DNA of 64,000 nt from Halobacteriaceae archaeon (GTDB lineage: Archaea > Halobacteriota > Halobacteria > Halobacteriales > Halobacteriaceae). Under the pieces are notes generated by a model. The model was not told the origin of the DNA. It ran no database searches and was given only the letters and a program-made list of their open reading frames with translations. The stretch is from NCBI GenBank assembly GCA_042216675.1, contig JBDGTS010000008.1, forward strand, positions 32,001 to 96,000, written 5' to 3'. A program made the translations under genes and the position numbers. Positions 21,495 to 45,390 of the stretch are shown here, piece by piece; within the stretch, counting starts at the first letter, position 1, and every line of letters begins with the position of its first letter.

Positions 21495-24215
21495 GTGCCA
21501 CCAAACGATACTGGCGGGGACGAGGGACGCACAGCGACGACAGACGACCTCCGACTCACCCGACGGACAGCGATGGCACTGCTCGGCGTCGGCGGCGCGG
21601 CGGCCGCCGGCGCTGGCTCGGCGGCGGCGACACACGACAAGGGGAACTCCGGCGCGCCGACGCGGCCGTGGAATCAGCACGTCGACGCTCAGGACCACGA
21701 CCTGACGAACGTCAGGGACCTCTCGACGGAGACGCTCACCGTCGACAACGTCTACACGCGTGCCCGGTGTGCCGACGTGTTGGTGTGGCGAGACGAGAGC
21801 GGGACGCTGTTCGCGGACAGTGCCGAGGAGACGCTGTACGAGGGCGACGACTTCACGGCCGCCGTGCAGGCGGCTCTCGACGGTCTCACGGACGGCCGCA
21901 CGTCGAAAGAGCGCGTCGTCGTGGCCACGTCGGGGACGATGGGGCCCCACGAGTGGGACGGCGACGTCGAGGCCATCGACGTCCCGAGTCACACGATTCT
22001 CGACCTCTGCGGGACCATCTTCGTCGAGGACGAGGGGGAGGCGCTCGTGCGACCGCTCCGGGCGCTCAACGCCGAGAACATCGAGATTCCGCACGTCCGC
22101 ATCGTGGGCAACTTCCGCGCGGCCATCTGGTTCCGGAGCGTGTTCAACGTGAAGTTCGGGCACATCGACATTCGCACGCCCGAGGACAGCATCATCTCGG
22201 GCACGGGCGGCGGGGTCCGCATCGACGGTTTCGCGAACGGGCGCGGCGACGACACCGTTCGCTGTAAAGACATTCAGGTTGACAGCGCCTACATCGAGAA
22301 CACCGTCGGCCACGCCTTCGAGACGTACGCGGTGGACCGCATTCAGGTCGGACAGGTCATCGCGAACAGGCCGAACTTCGCGGGCGTCCTCCTCAACGAC
22401 ACGCGCGACGCGACGGTCGGTGCCGTCGTCGGGAAGGAGGTGGACGTGGGCGGCGGCTACGCCGCCTTCCGCGTCGCCAACGGCTGCAAGGACGTGACCT
22501 GCGACCAGGTCGTCTGCCGGCGCGGCGCGCGCGGCGTCTTCGGCGTCTCGGGGTGTACCGACATCACCGTCGGCGAGGTCAACATCCAGCAGACGGACGC
22601 CAACGGCATCCTCATTCAGGACTGCCAGCGCTTCTCCATCAACGGCGGCGTCGTGAAGAACTGCTTCGGCGACGCCATCCGCGTCGACTCGCGCGACTCC
22701 GACAGACACGACCCCGCGGAGGGCGTCTCGGTGTCGAACGTCCGCGTCGTGGACACCCGCGAGGAGAAACAGCAGACCAACGGCATCTACGAGTCCGGTC
22801 CCGACACGGGGAACAACCGCTTCGTGGACAACGACTTGCGCGACGCCGGCACGGAGGCGAACATGCGGCTCTTTTCGGCGAGCAGTGTCGTCCGCGACAA
22901 CATGGCCGGCGGCGTGGACCACGGCACGGTGACGCTCTCCAGTGGAAGCACGCCCGCCGCGCGCGTCACCGGCGTCACCGACAAAGGCCCCTCGACGCTC
23001 GCCCTCCGGGCGAAGACGCGGGAGCCGCCGTCGTCACCCTTCGGGTACGACCACCGGTTCGAGTGGACCGGCAGCCAGTGGGACCTCGTCATCGAGTGGC
23101 AGACGGACCCCGGCGAGGACGTGCCCCTCGACTACATCGTCGACCGGCCACAGGCCAACATCGGCGAGACGCCGACCATCCCGCCGATACAGTTCGAGGG
23201 CCCCATCACCGCCGGCACCTATCGGCTGAACGCCGTCCACTCGGGACTGGCGCTCGAAACGGCGGCCGCCGACGCCGCGCCGGGCACCAACGTCCAGCAA
23301 GGCATCTGGGAGGACACCGACTACCAGAAGTGGACGGCAGTTCCCCTCGACGCCTACGAGGACCAGTTCCGAATCGAGAACTTCGCCAGCGGCGCGGTGC
23401 TCGGCGTCGAAGGTGGTTCGATGAACGACGGTGCGAACGTCAACGTCCAGTCGTGGTCCGACGTGCCGCACCAACGCTGGACCATCGAGGAGTACGGGAA
23501 CGGCCAGTACGCCGTCCGCGCGGTCCACTCCGGGCAGGCGCTCAACGTCGCCGGCGAGGACACCAACGACGGCGCGAACGTCGTCCAGTGGCCCTACGGC
23601 GGCGAGGGCGCCGGCAACGAGCTCTGGGACTTCGAGCAACAGGCCGTCGGCGGCGTCAGCGCCGGCATCGTCGACGACTTCGAGGACGGGAATCTCGACG
23701 AGTACGACGGGCAGACCGGAAACTACACCGTCAACAGCGACGCGCCGGTGGCCTCCGGCAGTCAGAGCCTGAAGAGCGACTCGGGCGGCGCCATCATCTC
23801 GATGGATGGCCTCGACCGCTACCCTGCCGAGGGGACGACGTTCTCCGCGAAAGTGGGGTACACGTCGGCGAACCCGACCATGGGTATCGCTTTCGGCGCG
23901 CAGGACGCCTCGTCGTTCTACTTCGCCCGCGTCTACCGCCCGGACGACTCCGACCCCCGCCTCCAACTGTACTCCCCGGAGAGCGGGAAACTCATCGGCG
24001 GCACGCTCTCCGGCCCGCTCACCGCGAACGCGCTGTACGAACTGGTCGTGGACTGGGCCGAGGGCGGCGAGTTCACGCTGACCATCAACGACCCCGACGG
24101 CAACGAACTCGAATCCCGGACTGCGACCGACGACGTGGGCATCGTCGGCGGCGGCGTCGGCACGCGGAACACGGCCATCCTCGACGAGTATCGCATCGAC
24201 TCGGGCACGCAGTAG
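21495..24215 (+). CDS. Tat-secreted right-handed beta-helix protein with ricin-B (CBM13-like) lectin and C-terminal beta domain
   Basis: TRRTAM signal; parallel beta-helix repeats in the N-terminal half; QKW/QRW/ELW ricin repeats with HSG and GANV motifs. Confidence 0.8.
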   Translation: MPPNDTGGDEGRTATTDDLRLTRRTAMALLGVGGAAAAGAGSAAATHDKGNSGAPTRPWNQHVDAQDHDLTNVRDLSTETLTVDNVYTRARCADVLVWRDESGTLFADSAEETLYEGDDFTAAVQAALDGLTDGRTSKERVVVATSGTMGPHEWDGDVEAIDVPSHTILDLCGTIFVEDEGEALVRPLRALNAENIEIPHVRIVGNFRAAIWFRSVFNVKFGHIDIRTPEDSIISGTGGGVRIDGFANGRGDDTVRCKDIQVDSAYIENTVGHAFETYAVDRIQVGQVIANRPNFAGVLLNDTRDATVGAVVGKEVDVGGGYAAFRVANGCKDVTCDQVVCRRGARGVFGVSGCTDITVGEVNIQQTDANGILIQDCQRFSINGGVVKNCFGDAIRVDSRDSDRHDPAEGVSVSNVRVVDTREEKQQTNGIYESGPDTGNNRFVDNDLRDAGTEANMRLFSASSVVRDNMAGGVDHGTVTLSSGSTPAARVTGVTDKGPSTLALRAKTREPPSSPFGYDHRFEWTGSQWDLVIEWQTDPGEDVPLDYIVDRPQANIGETPTIPPIQFEGPITAGTYRLNAVHSGLALETAAADAAPGTNVQQGIWEDTDYQKWTAVPLDAYEDQFRIENFASGAVLGVEGGSMNDGANVNVQSWSDVPHQRWTIEEYGNGQYAVRAVHSGQALNVAGEDTNDGANVVQWPYGGEGAGNELWDFEQQAVGGVSAGIVDDFEDGNLDEYDGQTGNYTVNSDAPVASGSQSLKSDSGGAIISMDGLDRYPAEGTTFSAKVGYTSANPTMGIAFGAQDASSFYFARVYRPDDSDPRLQLYSPESGKLIGGTLSGPLTANALYELVVDWAEGGEFTLTINDPDGNELESRTATDDVGIVGGGVGTRNTAILDEYRIDSGTQ

Positions 24216-24872
24216 CAACTGCGGCCACCCCCTTTCGCGGGCCGGGGTCGGCGACGCACACCCCCCGACTGCACGTCCGTGAGCGGTTCGAGGATGGGGG
24301 TGTCACCGGCGGCGACGAGCACGTCGGCCACGGAGCGTTCCGACGCCCGACCGCGGTCGCCCCCGAAGCGATAGGTCGCGCTAGTCTCGTTGAGGGACAC
24401 GCTCTCGCGGTTTCGGACGATGCCGATGGCGTCGGTCGCGGCGTCGAGGACTGCCTCGACGCGCGCCCCCGCGTCGACGACGTCGCGCTGGTCGCGGTAG
24501 TACCTGACCGCGTCCGTGACGAGCGACGCGAGGTGGCCCCACTGGTCCTGGTGTCGCTCTCTGACGAGATAGTCGGTGACGCCGGCGGAGATGGCACGAC
24601 TCGCGACCGCTTCGGTCCCCTCGCCGGTGCACAGAATGAACGGCAGCGTCGGGACCGTCGCTCGAACGGCTTCGAGGAGGGCGACCCCGTCCGTCTCCGG
24701 CAGGTCGTGGTCGCTGACGACGCACTCGATTCGCGGTTCCCCCTCGATGACGTCGATGGCCGTCCCGACCGACGCCACGGGGACGACCTGAATCGGTCCG
24801 TGGTCTGGAAGCGCGCTCACAGGCGGCGAAGGCTTCGTCCGCCGTCACCACCAGAACACGGAGCGTCGGCAC
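24216..24872 (-). pseudogene. Frameshifted and truncated response-regulator receiver + PAS gene
   Basis: The N-terminal VPTLRVLVVTADEAFAA is in a different frame from the receiver body (CVVSDHDLPETDG, FILCTGEG, AISAGVTDYL). The body frame has no stop until 23933, inside the convergent gene. Confidence 0.7.
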
Positions 24873-24928
24873 GGCCCTGCCTCGAACGACTTCCGCACGG
24901 ACAATCAAACTGGCTAACGCCCGTCCGG

Positions 24929-27073
24929 TCAGTCCGCCTTCGACAGTTCGACGACGAAAACCGCGCCCTCGGGGTCGTTGTCTTCGACCCGGACCGTTCC
25001 CCCGTACGCGTCGACGAGTTGTTCGACGAGGTAGAGCCCGATTCCCGTTCCCCCGCTGTCGAGGCCCTTTTCGCCTTTCCCGAACACCGCGTCCTTCTGT
25101 GCGTCGGGCACGCCCGGTCCGTTATCGGCGATCCGGACCTCGACCACCCCGTCCCCTTCGCTCGCCGTGACGGTGACTTCGGGCACCTCCGAGTCGTTGT
25201 GCTGGATCGCGTTCGTGAGGAGGTTTCGGAACACGGAGTCGAGCAGTTCGTCCGCCAGAACCGAACAGCGTGGGATCGCCCCCTTGACGGTGACGGCGGC
25301 GCTCTGATACTCCGACCGGACCTCCTCGACCTCGGCGTGGAGCGTCGAGCGCAGTTCGACCGGCTTCAGGGTGTCGTCGGTCGAGCGCATCACGTCCGCG
25401 AGGTCGCGTGCCGTCTCGGTGAGTTCGACCGCGTGTGCGGCGCTCTCACGAATGGTCTCCAGATACCCCTGCCCCGCCTCGTCGACGTACGTGTCCAGTA
25501 CGTCCGCGTAGGCGGTCACGAGTTGGAGGTCGTTCCGGATGTCGTGACGGAGCATCTGGTTCATCAAGTCGAGGTTGTCGCGTTGCTCCGCGAGTTGCTG
25601 TTCGTACCGCTTGCGCGCCGTGATGTCCTGAATCACGCCGTCGTACAGGACTTCGCCGTCGTCCTCGTGAGCGATGGCCGTCACGCTCCCCCAGATCTCT
25701 TCGCCGTCGAGCGTGACGAGTTCGAGTTCTCTCTCGGTCACGGCCCCCTCCTCACGGAGCGTCTCGCTGAACGCCTCCCGCTGTTCGGGATCGGCGTACA
25801 GTTCCTTCACCGTCTGGTCGCGGAGCGCGTCGACCGAGTCCGCGTCGAAGATGTCCGCCATCGCTTCGTTCAGGAACCGAAATTCGCCGTCCGGCCCCGC
25901 GGTGTTCTGATAGACCCCGATCGGGAGGTTCTCGACGAGGCGCTCGTACCGCCTGAGTTCCGCTTCGCGTTCCTTCCGGTCGGTGATGTCCTGAACGACC
26001 TTGTGGAGATGCTCAGTCCTCGTCGCGTCTTCGGTGAGCGCGGCGGTGACGGCGACGTCCTTCGTCTCGCCGTCGAGGGTCTGGAACTCGACCTCGTGTC
26101 TGACCCGCTCCTGGTCCGACGAGCGGAGGGCCTCGATGAGGGTGTCGCGCTCCTCGGGGTCGGCGTACACCTCGGCGACGCGGTGGTCGCGGAGTTCCTC
26201 CGCCGACTCGGCGTTCAACAGCGAGACGAGCGCCGGGTTGACGTATTCGAACGTCCCGTCCGACGTCGCCTCGGTTCGCAGGACCCCACTCGGGACCGCC
26301 TCTAGAAGGCGTTGTGCGGCTTCGAGTTCCTGTTCGGACTGTTTTCGGTCCGTGATGTCCTGCTGGAAGCCGACGAAGTGCTCTACGGTCTCCCCCACCC
26401 GGACGGGCGCTATCGTGACGCGGTTCCAGAACTCGGTGCCGTCCCGTCGGTAGTTCCGCAGTTCGACCGTAACCGACTTTTCGGCGTCGACCGCCTCTCG
26501 AATCTCCTCGACCGGTTCGGACGCCGTCGCGTCCCCCTGCAGGAACCTGCAGTTGCGCCCGAGGACCTCCTCCTCGGCGTAGCCGGTCAGTTTCTGAAAC
26601 CCGTCGTTCGCGTAAATCAGGGGGTTGTCCTCACGACTGGGGTCGCTGACCGTGACGCCTATCGGTGCCGCGTCGACGGCCTGCACGAGTCGGTCACGGT
26701 CCCGAAGGCGTTCGCCCGGCGTCCTGATCGGCGAGACGCGCGCGAGGACGTGTGGCTCGCCATCGACGGTGACCGACGAGAGACGCGCCTCGACGAGCGG
26801 ACTCGCCCCCGAATCGGGGGTCACCGTCCACTTGTGCGTTTCACCCTCGGGGTCTTCTCGCCGGACGTGTGCCAGAATCCCGTCCGACGAGCGCTGACTG
26901 GCAGTCGCGACCGACGTGACCGTCTCCCCCCGAATCCGCTCGCGGTCGCGGTCGGCCAGTTCGCAGAACCGCCGATTGCACTCTCGAATCCGTCCCGTTT
27001 CCGATTCGATGAGCAACAGCCCATCGGGATTCTCGTCGAAGAGTGTCTGGTACGCCGCCTCGGAAACGCTCAT
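24929..27073 (-). CDS. Multi-PAS sensor histidine kinase with LOV domain
   Basis: DNPLIYANDGF, GRNCRFLQG and NYRRDG LOV motifs; LRHDIRN H-box; NLLTNAIQH, DNGPG and GTGIGL HATPase boxes. Confidence 0.93.
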   Translation of the reverse strand: MSVSEAAYQTLFDENPDGLLLIESETGRIRECNRRFCELADRDRERIRGETVTSVATASQRSSDGILAHVRREDPEGETHKWTVTPDSGASPLVEARLSSVTVDGEPHVLARVSPIRTPGERLRDRDRLVQAVDAAPIGVTVSDPSREDNPLIYANDGFQKLTGYAEEEVLGRNCRFLQGDATASEPVEEIREAVDAEKSVTVELRNYRRDGTEFWNRVTIAPVRVGETVEHFVGFQQDITDRKQSEQELEAAQRLLEAVPSGVLRTEATSDGTFEYVNPALVSLLNAESAEELRDHRVAEVYADPEERDTLIEALRSSDQERVRHEVEFQTLDGETKDVAVTAALTEDATRTEHLHKVVQDITDRKEREAELRRYERLVENLPIGVYQNTAGPDGEFRFLNEAMADIFDADSVDALRDQTVKELYADPEQREAFSETLREEGAVTERELELVTLDGEEIWGSVTAIAHEDDGEVLYDGVIQDITARKRYEQQLAEQRDNLDLMNQMLRHDIRNDLQLVTAYADVLDTYVDEAGQGYLETIRESAAHAVELTETARDLADVMRSTDDTLKPVELRSTLHAEVEEVRSEYQSAAVTVKGAIPRCSVLADELLDSVFRNLLTNAIQHNDSEVPEVTVTASEGDGVVEVRIADNGPGVPDAQKDAVFGKGEKGLDSGGTGIGLYLVEQLVDAYGGTVRVEDNDPEGAVFVVELSKAD

Positions 27074-27106
27074 GCGGGGGGTTCCCCTGTGTCAGTTTAA
27101 ATGCTT

Positions 27107-27402
27107 TGAGACCGCCCTGGACTCGCGATACTCGTCCGCGCGCTCTCGACTCGGTGTACTCGCGAGGCCGCCCGGAGTCGAATCTCAGTCACTCCCGTTC
27201 GCTCGTTTCACTCGCTCACCTCCCGCTCCCTGCGTCGAATCCGCGGCCCCGTGAGCCGCTCACGATGTTCGCGGCAGCATGGACCGCCCGGATTCGAACC
27301 TCGGTCGCTGGGTCGAACCCCTACGTGCGGTCTTTCTGCCCGCGTTTTTTGCGAGGGAGCGAAGCGACCGAGGAAAAAGCGGGATGGGGCCGCCGTGGCT
27401 CG
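27107..27402. repeat. Distal array of degenerate tRNA-Pro 3'-end repeats with hairpin spacers
   Basis: Copies of TGGGACCGCCCGGATTCGAACC at about 27107, 27166, 27280 and 27385. Segment 27226-27300 aligns with 28852-28928, and 27325-27392 aligns with 28729-28805. Confidence 0.85.
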
Positions 27403-27435
27403 CTGGACTCGTCACTCACGCCGCCCCGACGAGGT

Positions 27436-27453
27436 CGGGAACGGCCGTTCCCG
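27436..27453. other. Perfect 18-bp palindrome just downstream of the lipoprotein stop codon
   Basis: CGGGAACGGCCGTTCCCG; overlaps a second hairpin CCCGAC-GAG-GTCGGG at 27425-27439. Possibly a terminator or RNA-stability element. Confidence 0.45.
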
Positions 27454-27454
27454 G

Positions 27455-28528
27455 TCAGAATTCGGGGAAGCGTTCGAGTTCCCCCGTTGGGACCGTCTGC
27501 CTGCCGACGACGAAGTCCCCGTCCACGGATTCGGTGACCTCGAATCCCCCAATCTCCGTCGGCAGGAAGTCCTCGCTGTCAGCGGCGGCCGACGCGCGCG
27601 CCTCGTCGGTGAACGGAAACGCGAACACCTTCTCGGTCTCTTGGTCCCCGACTCTCCAGCCGATTCCCGTTCCGAGTGCGCCCTCGGGCAGGCTGTTCGT
27701 ACTCCCGCTCACGTACACCGTCCCGTACGTCACCCGAACAAACGTATCTGCCTGGACAATTTCGAATAGCCGAGCGACTTTCGCATCGACCTCGTGAGCC
27801 CGCGCAACCGCGCCGGCCCGAGCATCGACGAACGTCTCGAGCAGGTCGGCCCCCTCGGGGTCGAATACGGCGATGACGACCGAATCACTGACGCCGATCG
27901 CGTTTCCGGTCTCGTTGTTCTCGATGATAGTGACGCCCTCGTACTCCGTCGGGCCGCTGGCCCACCCCTCGTTCAGATACGCGTCGACGGCGCTCTGCTC
28001 GTCGAACGTCCCGAGGTAGACGTGCGCCGCAGCGCCGCTCTCGGACCCGTCTCGCCACGGTGTCCGGATGCGGATGGAATCGTTGACCTGTCCCGGTTCG
28101 ACGTGCTGTGGCGTGTGCTCGTCGCCCGGAAATTTGCCCGACTGACTCGATAGCAATCCGTCCTGAAGACTGGCCTTCATCGAGCGGATCGCTGCGGCGT
28201 CGACGTACCATAGCTCGAAGTTGACCGTCCCGTCGACTGTCGAGGCTGGCGCTGGTATCCAGTCGGCGTACGGATAGTCGCCGGGCGTTCTGGTTTCGGT
28301 ATCGGTCCCGCCGTCTTCAGTCTCTGTCGTGGCGTCGGTCGCGTCGCCTTCTGTCTCCGTTCCGGTTTCAGTCGTCGCCGTCGTCGCGGTGCTGTCACCG
28401 CCCCCGGGTAGCGTCGCTGTGTCCTGCGTCCGGTCGTCCGTCCCGTCACCGCTACACCCGGCCACCAGCACGGCCCCAACTAACCCGCCACGTTGGAGGA
28501 GTCGGCGTCGGCTGTAGTTGGCACTCAT
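27455..28528 (-). CDS. Tat lipoprotein of unknown function with Thr/Glu-rich linker
   Basis: SRRRLL twin-arginine signal, VAGC lipobox, T-rich stalk and an acidic globular domain. Confidence 0.85.
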   Translation of the reverse strand: MSANYSRRRLLQRGGLVGAVLVAGCSGDGTDDRTQDTATLPGGGDSTATTATTETGTETEGDATDATTETEDGGTDTETRTPGDYPYADWIPAPASTVDGTVNFELWYVDAAAIRSMKASLQDGLLSSQSGKFPGDEHTPQHVEPGQVNDSIRIRTPWRDGSESGAAAHVYLGTFDEQSAVDAYLNEGWASGPTEYEGVTIIENNETGNAIGVSDSVVIAVFDPEGADLLETFVDARAGAVARAHEVDAKVARLFEIVQADTFVRVTYGTVYVSGSTNSLPEGALGTGIGWRVGDQETEKVFAFPFTDEARASAAADSEDFLPTEIGGFEVTESVDGDFVVGRQTVPTGELERFPEF

Positions 28529-28531
28529 CGT

Positions 28532-28560
28532 GCTAATTGTGAACGTGAATCACAATTAGC
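28532..28560. promoter_or_regulatory. Operator-like inverted repeat upstream of the lipoprotein gene
   Basis: GCTAATTGTGA-N7-TCACAATTAGC: perfect 11-bp AT-rich arms, 3 nt from the start codon. Confidence 0.65.
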
Positions 28561-28682
28561 GTTTTGATAGGAATGATGACGGGCGTCCGAAAACTGGCCT
28601 CCCGGGACCTTTCCCGCAGAACGCTACACAGTTGGTGACCCGAACCGACGACGATTTGCCGAAGGGGGCTGGGGCCTTCCGG

Positions 28683-28906
28683 TGGTGCCCCGTGGATTCG
28701 AACCGGGGTCGCGACCCCGACTCCGACCGTGCGGTCTTTTTTCCCACGTTTTTGCGAGCGAGGTCGCTGCGCGACCGAGCGACGCCAAAAGTGGAATGGG
28801 ACCGCCCGGATTCGAACCTCAGTCGGACGCGCTCGCTTCGCTGTGCGCGACCTCCCTGCTTCGAATCCGGGGCCCCCATGCGCCGCTCACGGTGTTCGCG
28901 GCAGCA
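28683..28906. repeat. Proximal array of tRNA-Pro 3'-end repeats with hairpin spacers
   Basis: GGATTCGAACCGGGGTCGCG at 28694-28713 and ATGGGACCGCCCGGATTCGAACC at 28796-28818 duplicate the tRNA 3' region. An inverted copy TTCGAATCCGG lies at 28860-28870. Confidence 0.9.
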
Positions 28907-28977
28907 TGGGACCGCCCGGATTCGAACCGGGGTCGCGGGCACCCAAGGCCCGAAGTATACCACTAACCCACGGTCCC
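28907..28977 (-). tRNA. tRNA-Pro(TGG)
   Basis: GGGACCG acceptor stem pairs with CGGTCCC-A; anticodon arm CGGGC-CTTGGGT-GCCCG; T-arm GGTTCGAATCC; CCA not encoded. Confidence 0.97.
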
Positions 28978-29054
28978 GCGGATGGGACCCCACGAGCGTC
29001 GTGATGGTCCCGCTACACGCCGAGAGTCGGCCCGCCGCGCGGTAAGCGTTTCGC

Positions 29055-31109
29055 TTACCGCCGTTCGTCGTCCAGTTCGAGGTCCGCCACTACGTCGAAG
29101 GGGTCCCGGCCCTTGCGCACGCCGTCGAGAATCTGGAACGACTCCTCGGGCGAGAGGAAGTGGCGGGTCACCGCGCGACCCAGCGCCGTCGGCTCCAAGC
29201 CGTCGATGAACTCGTAGTCGAGGAGTTTCCCGACGGCCCACGTCGTGTCGATGTCGCCGACCATCCGGTCGTTGAGGCGCTTGGCGGCCGACCCGCCGAC
29301 GACGACGTTCGCCAGCGTCTCGGCGACGGCCTCGTCGGCGTCGTAGCGGGCCACCACGTCCTCCATGTCGCCCTTGAGGAGTTTGAACGCCGCCTCGTCC
29401 TCGGTCATCTCCATCGACCCGTGGTAGGAGCAGTCCGGTTCCACGAGGAGATACACTACCCCCCGGTCGTGGTAGTCCGGGCGGCCCGCACGGCCGAGCA
29501 TCTGGTGGAACTCCTGCACCGTGAGCCACTCGATGCCCATCGCCAGCGAGTCGAAGACGACCTGCGAGGCGGGGAAGTCCACCCCCGCCGCCAGCGCCGC
29601 CGTGGTGACGACGGCCGCGAGGTCCTGATTCAGGAACTGTCTCTCGACGGACTTCCGGCGACCGTAGTCGAGGCCGGCGTGGTACGGCGCGGCGTCGTAC
29701 TCCAGTTTCCGCGAAATCTCGTGACAGCGCCGCCGCGAGTTCGTGAAGATGATGGTCTGTCCCCGATACCCCTTCGAGGATTTTCGGTCGAACTCGCGCT
29801 TGACGAGGCGGTTGGCGATGCGGGGCTTCTCGCCCCCGTCGGCGAACGTGACGTGTCGCTCGACGGGGACCGGGCGCTCCTCGAACTCGATGAGTTTCGC
29901 TTCGAGACGGCGGGCGAGCCATTCGGGGTTGCCCACCGTCGCGGAGAGGTAAACCCACTGCGCGCCGCCGTAGGACGACCGATTTTCGGCGCGCGTCTCA
30001 CAGTAGTGCTTGAGCCGCGAGATGAGGCCGTCGAGGCGGTGGCCGCGCTCCTCGGCCTGCAGATTGTGTACCTCGTCGATGACGACGGTGCCGATGTCGC
30101 CCAAGTCCCGGCCCGTGCGGAGGGCGTGGTCGATGCCCTCGTAGGTGCCGACGATGACGTCGGCGTCGGGTTCGAAGCGCTCGCCGCCGTCGCGGATGCG
30201 ACTCGACCCGACGCGGATGCTCACCTCGCCGAGGTGGCCGTACTCGTCGCGGAAGTCCTCGTGCTTCTGGTTCGCGAGGGCGACGAGGGGCACCAGGAAG
30301 AGCAGTTTCCCGTCGCCGCGACACATCCGGTCGAGGCCCGCCATCTCGCCGACGAGGGTCTTCCCAGTCGCCGTCGCGGAGACGACCATCTGGTCGTCCC
30401 CGTCCAGCAGGCCGTTCTCGACGGCGAGGCTCTGGACCGGGAGCAAGGTGTCGAAGCGGTCCTCCAGCAGTTCCTGCACGTCGGGATGCAAATCGAGGTC
30501 GGAGACGGGGACGTTGTCCACGTCGTCCGTCGTCGCGCTGATCTCGTCGAACTTCGTCAGGTCGGGGTCGAGTTCGCCCGACAGCAGATTGACGACGCGT
30601 TCGAGGTCCTGCACCTCGAAGAGCAGTTCTTCGAGGCGTTCGACGGCGCTCCCGCTGACCTCGCCGTGAAAGGCGAGTTCGCGTTCGAGTTCCGCCACCG
30701 CGCAGTCGGGGCAGATGTACTCGTCGTCGGCCTCGATGGCGGTGTCGTCGGTGAGCGGCGAGTAGTCGCCGCTGTTGGCGCAGTACCGGCAGGTCCGCAC
30801 GACGGCGGCCTCCAGTTGGTAGCCGTCGAGCATCGCGCGGAGTTCGTCGCGGCCGCGCTGTGAGGTCTGCTCGGAGATGCGGATGCGCGAGGCGCGGCGC
30901 GCGATTTCCACGAACTCCTCGGGTGGCCGTGGCTCCTCGCTGTCGCCCTCTTGCACCCGGAACTTCCCGGGACGGGGGCCAGCGCTCGTCTCCTTCAGTT
31001 CGAGGACGCCGCCGAACACGCGGTCCCCGTCCCGGTACACCGCCGCGCGGTAGTCGTCGCCGGACTCGTGGAGGAACAGCGTGCCGACCTGCTGGGCCTG
31101 CGTCGCCAC
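29055..31109 (-). CDS. Archaea-specific SF2 DExH helicase (ASH-Ski2 type), apparently lacking its C-terminal Cys domain
   Basis: N-terminal CRYC...CPDC Zn motif; SATATGKT, VPLVALANQK, DEVH, LSAT, YHAGL and QMLGRAGRP motifs. GTG start at 31109 is inferred. Confidence 0.9.
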   Translation of the reverse strand: MATQAQQVGTLFLHESGDDYRAAVYRDGDRVFGGVLELKETSAGPRPGKFRVQEGDSEEPRPPEEFVEIARRASRIRISEQTSQRGRDELRAMLDGYQLEAAVVRTCRYCANSGDYSPLTDDTAIEADDEYICPDCAVAELERELAFHGEVSGSAVERLEELLFEVQDLERVVNLLSGELDPDLTKFDEISATTDDVDNVPVSDLDLHPDVQELLEDRFDTLLPVQSLAVENGLLDGDDQMVVSATATGKTLVGEMAGLDRMCRGDGKLLFLVPLVALANQKHEDFRDEYGHLGEVSIRVGSSRIRDGGERFEPDADVIVGTYEGIDHALRTGRDLGDIGTVVIDEVHNLQAEERGHRLDGLISRLKHYCETRAENRSSYGGAQWVYLSATVGNPEWLARRLEAKLIEFEERPVPVERHVTFADGGEKPRIANRLVKREFDRKSSKGYRGQTIIFTNSRRRCHEISRKLEYDAAPYHAGLDYGRRKSVERQFLNQDLAAVVTTAALAAGVDFPASQVVFDSLAMGIEWLTVQEFHQMLGRAGRPDYHDRGVVYLLVEPDCSYHGSMEMTEDEAAFKLLKGDMEDVVARYDADEAVAETLANVVVGGSAAKRLNDRMVGDIDTTWAVGKLLDYEFIDGLEPTALGRAVTRHFLSPEESFQILDGVRKGRDPFDVVADLELDDERR

Positions 31110-31232
31110 GACGCCGTGTAGGCCGTGGCGGTATTTCAGCGGTTCGCCTCGGCGGCGGTCGGACGCGCCGGTCATGGCCACCGATGGCTTTACCGCCGTC
31201 GTGTGAGAGAGACAACTCGATGGGTCGAAACC

Positions 31233-31631
31233 GTGGCCGATGAGTCGGGCGCCGCGCTCACGAGGCGCGGCGTCGTCTCGGGCGCCGTCGCCGCGCTCGC
31301 CGGCTGTGCGGCGCTCGACGGCGAATCGCGTCCGGACGCCGTGCCGCTCACGATGTACAGCAGTTCGTCAGAGCGTCAGCGGGTCACGGTCACGCTCACG
31401 ACGCCGGACGGCGACACCGATTTCGAGCGACACGTCACCCTCGACCCGGACGAGGCGCGGAAGTGGACGATTCAGGACCCCGCCTCCGAGTACGAGGTCC
31501 GGGTCGCCCTCGACGGCGGCCCGACGAAGACGGCGACGTGGGACGTGGGCCACTGTGTGAGCCGATTCAGTATCGCGCTCTTTCCGGAGAACTCCGACGA
31601 GGCCATCTCGTTCGGCGCGCCGGCCTGCTGA
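31233..31631 (+). CDS. Small Tat lipoprotein
   Basis: TRRGVV signal and LAGC lipobox followed by a small beta-rich domain with two Cys; GTG start inferred. Confidence 0.75.
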   Translation: MADESGAALTRRGVVSGAVAALAGCAALDGESRPDAVPLTMYSSSSERQRVTVTLTTPDGDTDFERHVTLDPDEARKWTIQDPASEYEVRVALDGGPTKTATWDVGHCVSRFSIALFPENSDEAISFGAPAC

Positions 31632-31675
31632 GTTGGGCCCCCGCTTTTATGCTCGCGGGCACCCGTCGTTCTCCC

Positions 31676-32860
31676 ATGCGAAGTTTCACCGTCGGTCGGA
31701 TCTACGGCATCCCCATCCGCCTCGACCTGACGCTCCTCCTGATTCTCCCCCTGCTGGCGTGGCTCATCGGGGGACAGGTCGAACTGTGGGTGACCAATCT
31801 CAACGGCATCGGTGCGAACATCGACGCCGCGCCGCTGACGAGCGGGTCGACCCCGATGATTCTCGGGGCCGCGGCCGCAATCGGTCTCTTCCTCGGGGTG
31901 TTGCTCCACGAACTCGGACACTCGGTGGTCGCCATCCACTACGGCTACCCCATCGACTCCATCACGCTCTGGATTCTGGGCGGCATCGCGCAGTTCACCG
32001 ACCAGCCCGAGGACTGGAAACACGAGTTCAGCATCGCCCTCGCCGGTCCCGTGGTCAGCGTCGCCCTCGGGGCGCTCTCCTATGGGGCCTTGATGGTCCT
32101 GCCCGCGTCGCTCGACACGGTGCGGTTCGTCGTCGGCTACCTCGCGTTGATGAACTTCGCGCTCGCGGCGTTCAACATGCTCCCCGGGTTCCCGATGGAC
32201 GGCGGGCGGGTCCTCCGGGCGCTGCTGGCACGCGACCGGCCCTACGCCAGAGCGACCCAGATCGCGGCCGAGGTGGGCAAACTGTTCGCCATCCTGCTGG
32301 GCATCGTCGGGCTCTTCGCCAACATCTTCCTCGTGCTCATCGCCCTGTTCATCTACGTCGGCGCGTCGGGTGAGGCCCAGCGCACGGTGATGAACGCCGC
32401 GTTCGCGGACGTGTCGGTGCGGGACATCATGACGCCGGCAGACGACCTCGAAACCGTCACGCCCGAAACCTCCGTCGCGGATCTGCTGGACCGGATGTTC
32501 CGGGAGCGCCACACGGGTTACCCGGTGCTGGAGAACGGGGGCCTCGTGGGTCTCGTGACGCTGGAGGACGCCCGCGAGGTGCCGGAGGTGGAGCGCGACG
32601 CCTACCTCGTCGAGGACGTCATGACGCGGGACCTGATCACCGTCTCCGCCGACAGAAACGTGATGGACGCCTTCGACACGATGACGGAGAACGGCGTCGG
32701 GCGCGTCCTCGTCGTCGACGACGACGGGAACCTCGTCGGCCTCCTCACCCGCACGGACATCATGACGGCGCTGAACATCATCCGCAACGCCGGGTTCGGC
32801 CCCGGTGCCGCCTCCGCCGCCGACGCCGCGGCCGTCGAGTCGGGTGCGAGCAGTCCCTAG
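31676..32860 (+). CDS. Site-2 protease (M50) with tandem CBS domains
   Basis: HELGH, AGP and FNMLPGFPMDGGR motifs; two C-terminal CBS repeats. Confidence 0.95.
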   Translation: MRSFTVGRIYGIPIRLDLTLLLILPLLAWLIGGQVELWVTNLNGIGANIDAAPLTSGSTPMILGAAAAIGLFLGVLLHELGHSVVAIHYGYPIDSITLWILGGIAQFTDQPEDWKHEFSIALAGPVVSVALGALSYGALMVLPASLDTVRFVVGYLALMNFALAAFNMLPGFPMDGGRVLRALLARDRPYARATQIAAEVGKLFAILLGIVGLFANIFLVLIALFIYVGASGEAQRTVMNAAFADVSVRDIMTPADDLETVTPETSVADLLDRMFRERHTGYPVLENGGLVGLVTLEDAREVPEVERDAYLVEDVMTRDLITVSADRNVMDAFDTMTENGVGRVLVVDDDGNLVGLLTRTDIMTALNIIRNAGFGPGAASAADAAAVESGASSP

Positions 32861-45107: not shown

Positions 45108-45317
45108 TCGCCGTCCGGCTTTTCGACCCCTCTCTCCGGTCTCATCAGAACGCAGAGCGTTCTGGTTGGCTCACGAGACGCTCTGCGTCTCGCGAACGTC
45201 GCCAGAAAGGTCCGGGTGCGAGAATCGAACCCGATGGCGAGACTCGCGTCGCTCGTCTCGCGTGGTTCGATTTCGCTGTCCGGCTTTTCCACTCCTCCCG
45301 CTGGTCGTCGTGAAAAA
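45108..45317. repeat. tRNA-His 3'-end repeat with fold-back unit and twin hairpins
   Basis: Exact 24-bp duplicate GTCCGGGTGCGAGAATCGAACCCG at 45210-45233 versus 45318-45341. An inverted copy lies at 45264-45283, and hairpins lie at 45146-45164, 45174-45192 and 45237-45261. Confidence 0.9.
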
Positions 45318-45390
45318 GTCCGGGTGCGAGAATCGAACCCGCGTCCCAGCCTCCACAAGGCTGGAGGATAACCACTACCCCAACCCGGAC
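45318..45390 (-). tRNA. tRNA-His(GTG) with genome-encoded G-1
   Basis: G-TCCGGGT...ACCCGGA-C acceptor; anticodon arm CAGCC-TTGTGGA-GGCTG; T-loop GGTTCGATTC. Confidence 0.97.

Follow-up and report, generated by a model that had tools for sequence, protein, structure and literature searches.

The closest known relative of the element described here is the RtT/RttR repeat of the Escherichia coli tyrT-tyrV locus (Rfam RF00391), whose 178-bp units each end in a copy, 19 nt long, of the 3' end of tRNA-Tyr, this copy occurring five times; we know of no function assigned to it. Integron cassettes use attC, and CTX phage uses a folded attP site together with dif; both the attC and the attP hairpins are folded single-strand recombination sites. 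REPINs, doublets of repetitive extragenic palindromic (REP) sequences, are mobilised by RAYT transposases. Among the Archaea, passages of one report describe in Methanopyrus kandleri a palindrome, CGTTA N9 TAACG, that follows half of the tRNA genes at a distance of about 10 bp (PMC5217627). Here we analyse a cassette of about 111 bp found directly 3' of a tRNA-Pro(UGG) gene in a stretch of 64,000 nucleotides of a Halobacteriaceae archaeon (assembly GCA_042216675.1, contig JBDGTS010000008.1, positions 32,001 to 96,000); this whole stretch will be referred to as "the window". The source is a metagenome-assembled genome with 69% G+C, 2.15 Mb in size and 80% complete, whose relatives are haloarchaea. 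The cassette is one copy of a large, apparently undescribed family situated behind haloarchaeal tRNA genes.

Anatomy of the tRNA-Pro Cassette

Read in the sense of the tRNA, the cassette comprises a trailer hairpin, an antisense copy of the tRNA 3' end, a centre and a sense copy of the same tRNA end. The host gene and the four parts are the following:

28907–28977, minus strand: tRNA-Pro(UGG), the host gene, with no encoded CCA (ARAGORN; Rfam tRNA model, 61.2 bits)
28879–28906, minus strand: trailer hairpin H, 28 nt, in tRNA sense TGCTGCCGC GAACACCGTGA GCGGCGCA (folds; family profile)
28860–28878, minus strand: antisense arm, reverse complement of the T-loop, the T-stem 3' strand and, imperfectly, the acceptor 3' strand (sequence)
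28819–28859, minus strand: conserved centre, 41 nt, in tRNA sense GCAGGGAGGTCGCGCACAGCGAAGCGAGCGCGTCCGACTGA (pattern scans; 104-unit alignment; pair counts)
28796–28818, minus strand: sense arm, an exact 23-nt copy of the tRNA from position 52/53 to the discriminator plus 1 nt (19/19)

The locus had been singled out by a reading made from the letters alone (hereafter, the sequence-only reading), in which the 11-mers CCGGATTCGAA (28806–28816, plus strand) and TTCGAATCCGG (28860–28870) were claimed as perfect inverted repeats around an inner stem. Both are exact inverted repeats, with letters and coordinates as claimed, and the proposed core of the inner stem, GCTCGCTTCGCTG, is present at 28831–28843 within the inner segment. 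Since the tRNA gene lies at 28907–28977 on the minus strand, the antisense arm starts about 27–30 nt past the discriminator, in line with the roughly 30 nt proposed. On the other hand, the limits given to the unit (28797–28880) were too narrow, as the functional unit extends over 28796–28906.

The antisense arm matches the reverse complement of the T-loop and the five following nucleotides at 12/12 positions, and the sense arm produces an exact direct repeat of 23 nt (28796–28818 being equal to 28906–28928, the tRNA 3' end), followed in tRNA sense by the T run TTCCACTTTTGG. The centre holds an AGGGAG box and an imperfect hairpin with a GCGAAGC cap; the box ahead of the sense arm reads GACTGA at this locus and GACCGT in most units of the family. 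Four exact occurrences of the 11-mer were counted in the 64 kb: the tRNA strand has three of them, in the tRNA and in two sense copies, and the opposite strand has the remaining one. Allowing one mismatch at most raises the count to seven, vs. 1.99 ± 1.64 in 100 shuffles, none of which reached seven. The inverted match is not a product of chance.

A Family of Cassettes Behind Haloarchaeal tRNA Genes

Family members are non-coding cassettes of about 85–115 bp, single or in tandem, placed immediately 3' of tRNA genes. A strict pattern (inverted T-loop, core, direct T-loop) gave 36 matches, spread over 32 of the 401 genomes of the order, with none for the reversed control, and a tRNA gene lay just upstream in 27 of 30 loci, always in the same orientation. 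A generic, core-independent pattern (GATTCGAA, 30–60 nt, GGTTCGAATC) was present in 37 of 46 genomes of the same order vs. 0 of 254 other genomes of the phylum, its control also giving zero. A scan of species genomes with the 24-nt core of the centre returned at least 120 stretches, 80 of which were examined as DNA: among the matches listed, 61/80 have a same-orientation tRNA gene within 400 nt, only one has solely a convergent tRNA gene, and no tRNA was called in 18, seven of these being an unrelated bacterial repeat. The hosts amount to about 20 tRNA species across haloarchaeal genera (Haloarcula, Haloferax, Halorubrum, Natronomonas and Natrinema among them), including tRNAs for Arg, Leu, Val, Gly, Ser, Pro, His, Lys, Phe, Met, Gln, Thr and Glu. 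Culturable carriers include Haloferax larsenii, Haloferax elongans, Haloarcula japonica, Haloarcula vallismortis and Halorubrum lipolyticum. As for tRNA-Pro(UGG) itself, cassettes were recognised by eye in 5 of 15 relatives.

A census of the source genome covered the 30 tRNAs with a recognisable T-loop and their flanks (sense copy, at least 16/19 within 300 nt; antisense arm, at least 10/12). Sense copies lie downstream of 14 of the 30 tRNAs, 12 of them matching at 19/19, and upstream of none; antisense arms lie downstream of 12 and, again, upstream of none. The controls with foreign arms gave 13/570 and 68/570. A lack of comparable inverted copies at other tRNA loci would have spoken against the sequence-only reading; such copies are present at many loci and beside about 20 tRNA species, so this objection does not apply.

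An alphaproteobacterial-type repeat (loci L059, L061, L074, L090, L110, L114, and L132) and the haloarchaeal centre have the 24-nt core GACG.GC.CAGCGAAGCGAGC.CGTC in common; the former has CCTCCCC/GGGGAGG hairpins on its flanks and no tRNA near. A viral origin was considered and rejected: the scan of IMG/VR gave one contig (L059), belonging to this alphaproteobacterial-type repeat and sharing only the 24-nt core. Other identities were discarded as well. ARAGORN and the Rfam tRNA model call only 28907–28977 in the region, and the T-stem 5' strand is not copied, which excludes a second tRNA or a tRNA pseudogene. Nor is the cassette a miniature inverted-repeat transposable element, which would have fixed terminal inverted repeats of an IS family and a short target duplication: the arms vary by locus and copy the host tRNA, and the duplicated segment is 20–23 nt of tRNA. 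It is not a REP/REPIN either, a type marked by one repeated palindrome family and a RAYT gene, since the arms are host-specific and the genome (80% complete) gave no PF01797 match. A tRNA intron or bulge-helix-bulge motif, a casposon-type target duplication, an IS200/IS605-type element and a protelomerase product all lack their defining signals.

Arms Tailored to the Host and Covariation

A total of 104 distinct units, collected with the 24-nt core pattern, were aligned. Over the arm helix and the centre helix, 79.6% of the cells are paired vs. 71.2% in shuffles, none of 500 being as high, and slid controls are paired at 28–45%. Double-sided changes were counted in 237 cells vs. 99.6 in shuffles, a value likewise reached by 0/500. 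The arm pair at T-loop position 57 illustrates this variation, being C-G in 59, U-A in 28 and U-G in nine of the 104 units. Some imperfections of the hairpin are near-fixed, namely a T.T (75 units) and a C.A (99 units).

Both arms follow their host. The antisense arm matches its own tRNA at 9.89 of 12 positions vs. 8.49 ± 0.11 with permuted hosts (0/1000 permutations as high), and it mirrors rare T-loops such as TTCGATT, TTCAACT, TTCGACT, and TTCGAAC. Host position 57 is concordant in the sense arm of 57/60 units and in the antisense arm of 43/47. The sense arm has a sharp boundary: in 60 units its identity to the host is 7–52% 5' of G52, and 85–100% from T54 to the 3' end. At the family level, the covariation among the 104 units answers the doubt that the self-complementary TTCGAA core might by itself explain the inverted match. 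Selection for pairing, one of the explanations put forward by the sequence-only reading, gains support from this covariation and from the way in which the antisense arm tracks host T-loop variants (43/47; permutations, 0/1000).

Predicted Folding

The antisense copy is one half of a long palindrome, whose other half runs from the tRNA 3' end into the first portion of the trailer, with hairpin H in the middle. In 62 units, positions 0–9 counted from the start of the T-loop are paired in 85–98%, positions 10–14 in 37–60%, forming an internal loop, and positions 15–28 (acceptor end and trailer) in 55–89% vs. 39–59% in chimera controls. The expected long hairpin was obtained in silico both for RNA and for single-stranded DNA (ssDNA): as RNA, the trailer alone is predicted to form this hairpin next to H (−65.9 kcal/mol, z −4.5), and the ssDNA of the two strands gives the long hairpin at z −3.7 and −4.9. 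The only additional Rfam hit, to a herpesvirus microRNA precursor model, was rejected, being sub-threshold (24.6 bits vs. a 70-bit cut-off) and merely a reflection of the alternative hairpin.

When the tRNA is included, the partner of the antisense arm in the minimum-energy fold is the 3' arm of the tRNA itself, on the other side of H. This differs from the fold of the trailer alone, so that two equal alternative hairpins, arm1-H-antisense and antisense-centre-arm2, compete on paper. In the RNA version of the sequence-only reading, the antisense arm of a read-through precursor would compete with the T-arm/acceptor fold or offer decoy RNase P/tRNase Z sites, thereby tuning maturation. The predicted pairing of the tRNA with its trailer, the two equal hairpins and the scarcity of an immediate T run (found in 6/60 first trailers) fit such a role, which we nevertheless regard as quite improbable: the prediction is thermodynamic only and ignores both co-transcriptional folding and the tertiary structure of the tRNA, the antisense arm could do without any contact with the tRNA, since it pairs just as well with the downstream sense arm, and the conserved centre, the arrays and the very existence of a sense copy are left unexplained.

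Cassette Dynamics and the Conserved Centre

Cassettes occur in arrays of near-identical units, such as three units at one locus (L033) and four with a 111-nt period at another (G212). Behind tRNA-Leu(UAA) of Halorubrum species, the same unit (hairpin plus centre) occupies differing array positions. An identical 40-nt centre is found in 15/104 units, beside tRNA-Arg(CCU), Arg(UCG), Arg(UCU), Leu(UAG), and Leu(UAA), and the trailer hairpins at these identical-centre loci are wholly different yet self-complementary. Two boxes are common to all centre subtypes, AGGGAG after the antisense arm and GACCGTGG ahead of the sense arm. A derivation of the centre from the host tRNA body was rejected as too weak, since the best match was only 10/11 (TCCGACCGTGG), to the variable loop/T-stem of one species' tRNA-Arg(CCT). 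The largest insert seen between a tRNA and its antisense arm measures about 45 nt.

A miniature integrative element is one alternative explanation, in which the arms would pair in ssDNA and rebuild a duplex T-loop/T-stem, to be recombined with the tRNA gene by a tyrosine recombinase, the host Xer-type enzyme or another. Predicted folds do give an imperfect hairpin whose stem would mimic a duplex target, with a basal stem, an internal loop and an upper stem resembling the attC layout; the arms are host-specific and sharply bounded in the T-loop, conserved boxes abut both T-loop copies, and the imperfections T.T (75/104) and C.A (99/104) are near-fixed. Tandem arrays, cassette shuffling, identical centres beside different tRNAs, a fragment close to the cassette that looks like a T-loop-joined hybrid (fragment C, listed below) and a mismatch bias of the first palindrome toward the strand opposite the tRNA would also fit. 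Against all this, no recombinase could be linked to the cassettes, the genome (80% complete) yielding two integrase-family hits only, on other contigs, and no IS200-type Y1 transposase; cargo above about 45 nt between tRNA and antisense arm was not seen, and 50,697 phage records gave no match. Circular, excised or empty forms were not seen either: four DNA runs showed only look-alike units of other organisms and unitig breaks, in a check read from contigs, where rare forms are not visible. We consider this explanation unlikely. Little credence is likewise given to its broader version, by which the cassettes would be miniature integrative elements able to enter any tRNA gene, and E. coli RtT would belong to the same unrecognised class of tRNA-gene parasites, spread over both prokaryotic domains.

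A Proposed Foldable Trailer Cassette

Sequence comparison supports, on the one hand, a dynamics of the cassettes at the DNA level and, on the other, a constraint on the pairing of their arms. The explanation that we favour, with a confidence somewhat short of an even chance, is that of a haloarchaea-wide family of cassettes behind tRNA genes, shuffled by recombination and kept foldable. Cassettes would be gained, lost and shuffled via recombination through the sense copies or the T-loop, and the need of the cassette to form a long hairpin would keep the antisense arm complementary; the base of this hairpin may mimic the acceptor/T-arm helix, ending at the discriminator. In the form that we prefer, the folded molecule would be the 3'-trailer RNA of a tRNA precursor, excised by tRNA-processing enzymes as in E. 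coli RttR; within the favoured explanation this form is held tentatively, and the alternative form, a single-stranded DNA recombination intermediate, is considered only somewhat less probable. For the RNA form, a TTTT within 10 nt of the tRNA end is found in only 6/60 first trailers, and the T run behind the last arm would count in favour of a trailer RNA. Stable trailers have precedents in haloarchaea: passages of two reports on Haloferax volcanii describe a stable 3' trailer of tRNA-His of about 60 nt (PMC3495736) and two RNA 3' ends behind tRNA-Pro (PMC7237163).

Several points weigh against a foldable trailer cassette. The core pattern was used for collecting the units, which makes the conservation of the core partly a result of construction, and related genomes are non-independent samples. 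No recombinase or other partner protein of the cassettes was found. Among the public runs searched, no RNA run contained this stretch, the two RNA rows matching only 7% of the sampled words. Plain gene conversion could hold the sense arms identical to the tRNA, and templated quasi-palindrome correction could maintain the antisense arms, in neither case with any need for a function. Finally, the transition mismatches of the arm1-H-antisense palindromes comprise, as read on the sense strand, 24 G.T vs. 53 A.C, the latter being wobbles on the other strand; the antisense/sense helix has 32 (G.T) vs. 23 (A.C), and the near-fixed C.A of the centre (99/104) wobbles only on the antisense strand. These mismatch statistics, which are contradictory as to the strand, do not favour a constraint acting on tRNA-sense RNA, so that a folded ssDNA site and neutral template switching remain live rivals.

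The second of these rivals takes the cassettes as a functionless by-product of replication, in which quasi-palindrome template switching near a heavily transcribed gene leads to a direct-inverted-direct triplication, and templated correction keeps the arms complementary. Tandem inversion duplication and origin-dependent inverted-repeat amplification are template-switch events of this kind. Strand-switch or hairpin-primed copying, suggested by the sequence-only reading, is a possible source of the antisense copy. The sense-antisense-sense order with its junctions at hairpins, the continuation of the antisense copy through the non-tRNA trailer into one long palindrome and the lack of a strand-specific RNA wobble signal would all fit such a by-product, and template switching at inverted repeats is reported as a source of inverted triplications (PMC11790251). 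A by-product is harder to reconcile with a centre that is not locally derived, is conserved across families and is identical in 15/104 units beside five tRNA species, with AGGGAG and GACCGTGG boxes in every centre subtype, with the restriction of the family to one order even though T-loops are universal, and with trailer hairpins that have diverged completely, through compensatory changes, next to sense arms still identical to the tRNA. On balance, a mere by-product appears improbable as an account of the whole, and a foldable trailer cassette continues to be our preferred explanation.

A Second Cassette and the Surroundings of the Locus

The region beyond the first cassette holds further repeat material and several genes:

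27164–27279, minus strand: second cassette, with H' at 27251–27279, antisense arm at 27234–27250 and sense arm at 27164–27185 (sequence; repeat comparison)
27185–27233, minus strand: centre of the second cassette, purine-rich subtype, AGGGAGCGGGAGGTGAGCGAG...CGAGCGAACGGGAG (sequence)
27280–27300, minus strand: fragment B, a displaced copy of the tRNA-Pro 3' end heading the second cassette (repeat comparison)
28683–28712, minus strand: fragment C, 19 nt identical to the tRNA-Pro variable loop/T-stem 5' strand/T-loop, followed by a foreign 3' end, CCACGGGGCACCA (sequence)
28731–28795, minus strand: hairpin module Y, CCACTTTTGGCG...CGCAAAAACGTGG and then GAAAAAAGACC, past the sense arm (repeat comparison)
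27455–28528, minus strand: open reading frame (ORF) of 357 amino acids, lying between the two clusters of cassettes; the N-terminus is twin-arginine and lipobox-like, and a linker is rich in Thr/Asp/Glu
21495–24215: ricin-type lectin-domain protein, an ordinary-looking neighbour
24929–27073: multi-PAS histidine kinase, an ordinary-looking neighbour
29055–31181: DEAD/DEAH helicase, an ordinary-looking neighbour

The hairpin and antisense arm of the second cassette are 92% identical to those of the first (copy at 27247–27282). The sequence-only reading had noticed this unit and taken it for a decayed sister; the unit does exist (27164–27279), but it is not decayed. Its purine-rich centre is a different subtype, which recurs in other genomes and on contig C18 of the same genome, so it is a second type of cassette rather than a decayed copy. 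Module Y also recurs, at about 27330–27400, behind tRNA-Pro(GGG) on contig C50, on contigs C51 and C18, and in related genomes with an identity of up to 96%. As for fragment C, its sequence looks like a hybrid with the junction in the T-loop. Elsewhere in the window, tRNA-His(GUG) (45317–45390, minus strand) has a 28-nt copy of its 3' end at 45206–45233 (27/28 identical), 108 nt downstream, with a weaker antisense arm between gene and copy.

Such a concentration of tRNA pieces could suggest ordinary attL/attR scars of integrase-bearing proviruses or plasmids once inserted in tRNA genes. Direct repeats of the tRNA 3' end, as found here, are the classic signature of these events; fragments B and C are near, as is a stretch of 1.6 kb containing a single orphan gene, and passages of two reports document partial tRNA copies beside haloarchaeal integrative elements (PMC3119063; PMC7002104). 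The orphan gene, the 357-amino-acid ORF (27455–28528), matched no Pfam family and may represent a small insertion at the tRNA. This explanation is nonetheless very improbable for the cassettes. Fourteen of 30 tRNAs have a sense copy, but Phage_integrase gave two hits only in the 2.15-Mb genome, on contigs C28 and C30 and neither on the contig of the window; the spacing of about 87 bp between the direct repeats holds no ORF, hence neither integrase nor cargo, and the cassettes in general are devoid of cargo. Moreover, a conserved centre is shared among them, the phage search gave 0 matches in 50,697 records (a plasmid search, one partial match), and att duplication cannot make an antisense arm. 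In this last respect the sequence-only reading was right in seeking another origin for the antisense copy, which is real and host-specific.

Regarding the sequencing support of the locus, the cassette and the adjoining 3' part of tRNA-Pro lie on one unitig with zero differences in two metagenome runs, one of them possibly the source of the window. The unitigs of public runs break exactly at 27350–27375 and 28906–28934, so that the order of the segments across both repeats is the assembler's choice. Cassettes break assemblies.

Comparison With Known Systems and Significance

If the proposed explanation is true, many haloarchaeal tRNA genes bear a structured appendage made from their own 3' end and ignored by genome annotation. 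The cassettes may represent either a novel type of tRNA-trailer RNA or a novel type of minimal mobile DNA, they bear on the role of tRNA genes as recombination hotspots, and they can be mistaken for integration scars. The latter confusion is easily understood, as archaeal attL/attR partial-tRNA repeats also duplicate the tRNA 3' end downstream and can accumulate in several copies; the cassettes differ in having neither integrase nor cargo, in their antisense arm and conserved centre, and in the many tRNAs affected.

The likeness to integron attC and CTX-phage attP is one of architecture only: inverted arms that mimic a duplex target, a conserved basal stem, an internal loop, a variable upper part and arrays. 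The cassettes lack the corresponding core consensus (GTTRRRY, dif) and have no cargo at all. With REPINs they share the form of short intergenic inverted doublets that make long hairpins in many copies; unlike these, the cassette arms are specific to each host tRNA and always located 3' of the tRNA gene, and no Y1 transposase was found in the 80% complete genome. The M. kandleri motif is also archaeal and lineage-specific, a palindrome that closely follows about half of the tRNA genes on their 3' side, but, going by the passages of that report, it is a single short motif, not built from tRNA sequence and not arranged in arrays (PMC5217627).

RtT/RttR follows the same logic as the cassettes. 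Both consist of non-coding units arranged in tandem directly behind a tRNA gene, and in both every unit ends with a copy of the tRNA 3' end. An E. coli unit contains, in addition, a 10-nt antisense copy, GGGGAAGGAT, which the predicted RttR fold pairs with the sense copy, closing the molecule, and an interior with GAGCGAAGCGA-like motifs. The E. coli interior, for its part, partly resembles the tRNA-Tyr D-arm (CGAGCGGCCAAAGGGAG). There are also clear differences. The Rfam RtT model gives no hit at E ≤ 1 in window positions 24000–32000 or at loci L009, L025, L030, and L033, while scoring 133–138 bits on four E. coli units as a positive control. RtT is bound to enterobacterial tRNA-Tyr, whereas the cassettes stand behind about 20 tRNA species. 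In E. coli the sense copy begins within the T-loop and takes in CCA; in the cassettes it begins at G52/53 and lacks CCA, and the cassette antisense arm also copies the T-loop. Full-text literature searches found no description of the cassettes, which are an RtT-like tRNA-end repeat and more general than the sequence-only reading had assumed. With them, the 45-year-old puzzle of E. coli RtT gains a large, diverse and genetically tractable counterpart, with carriers in Haloferax, Haloarcula, and Halorubrum.

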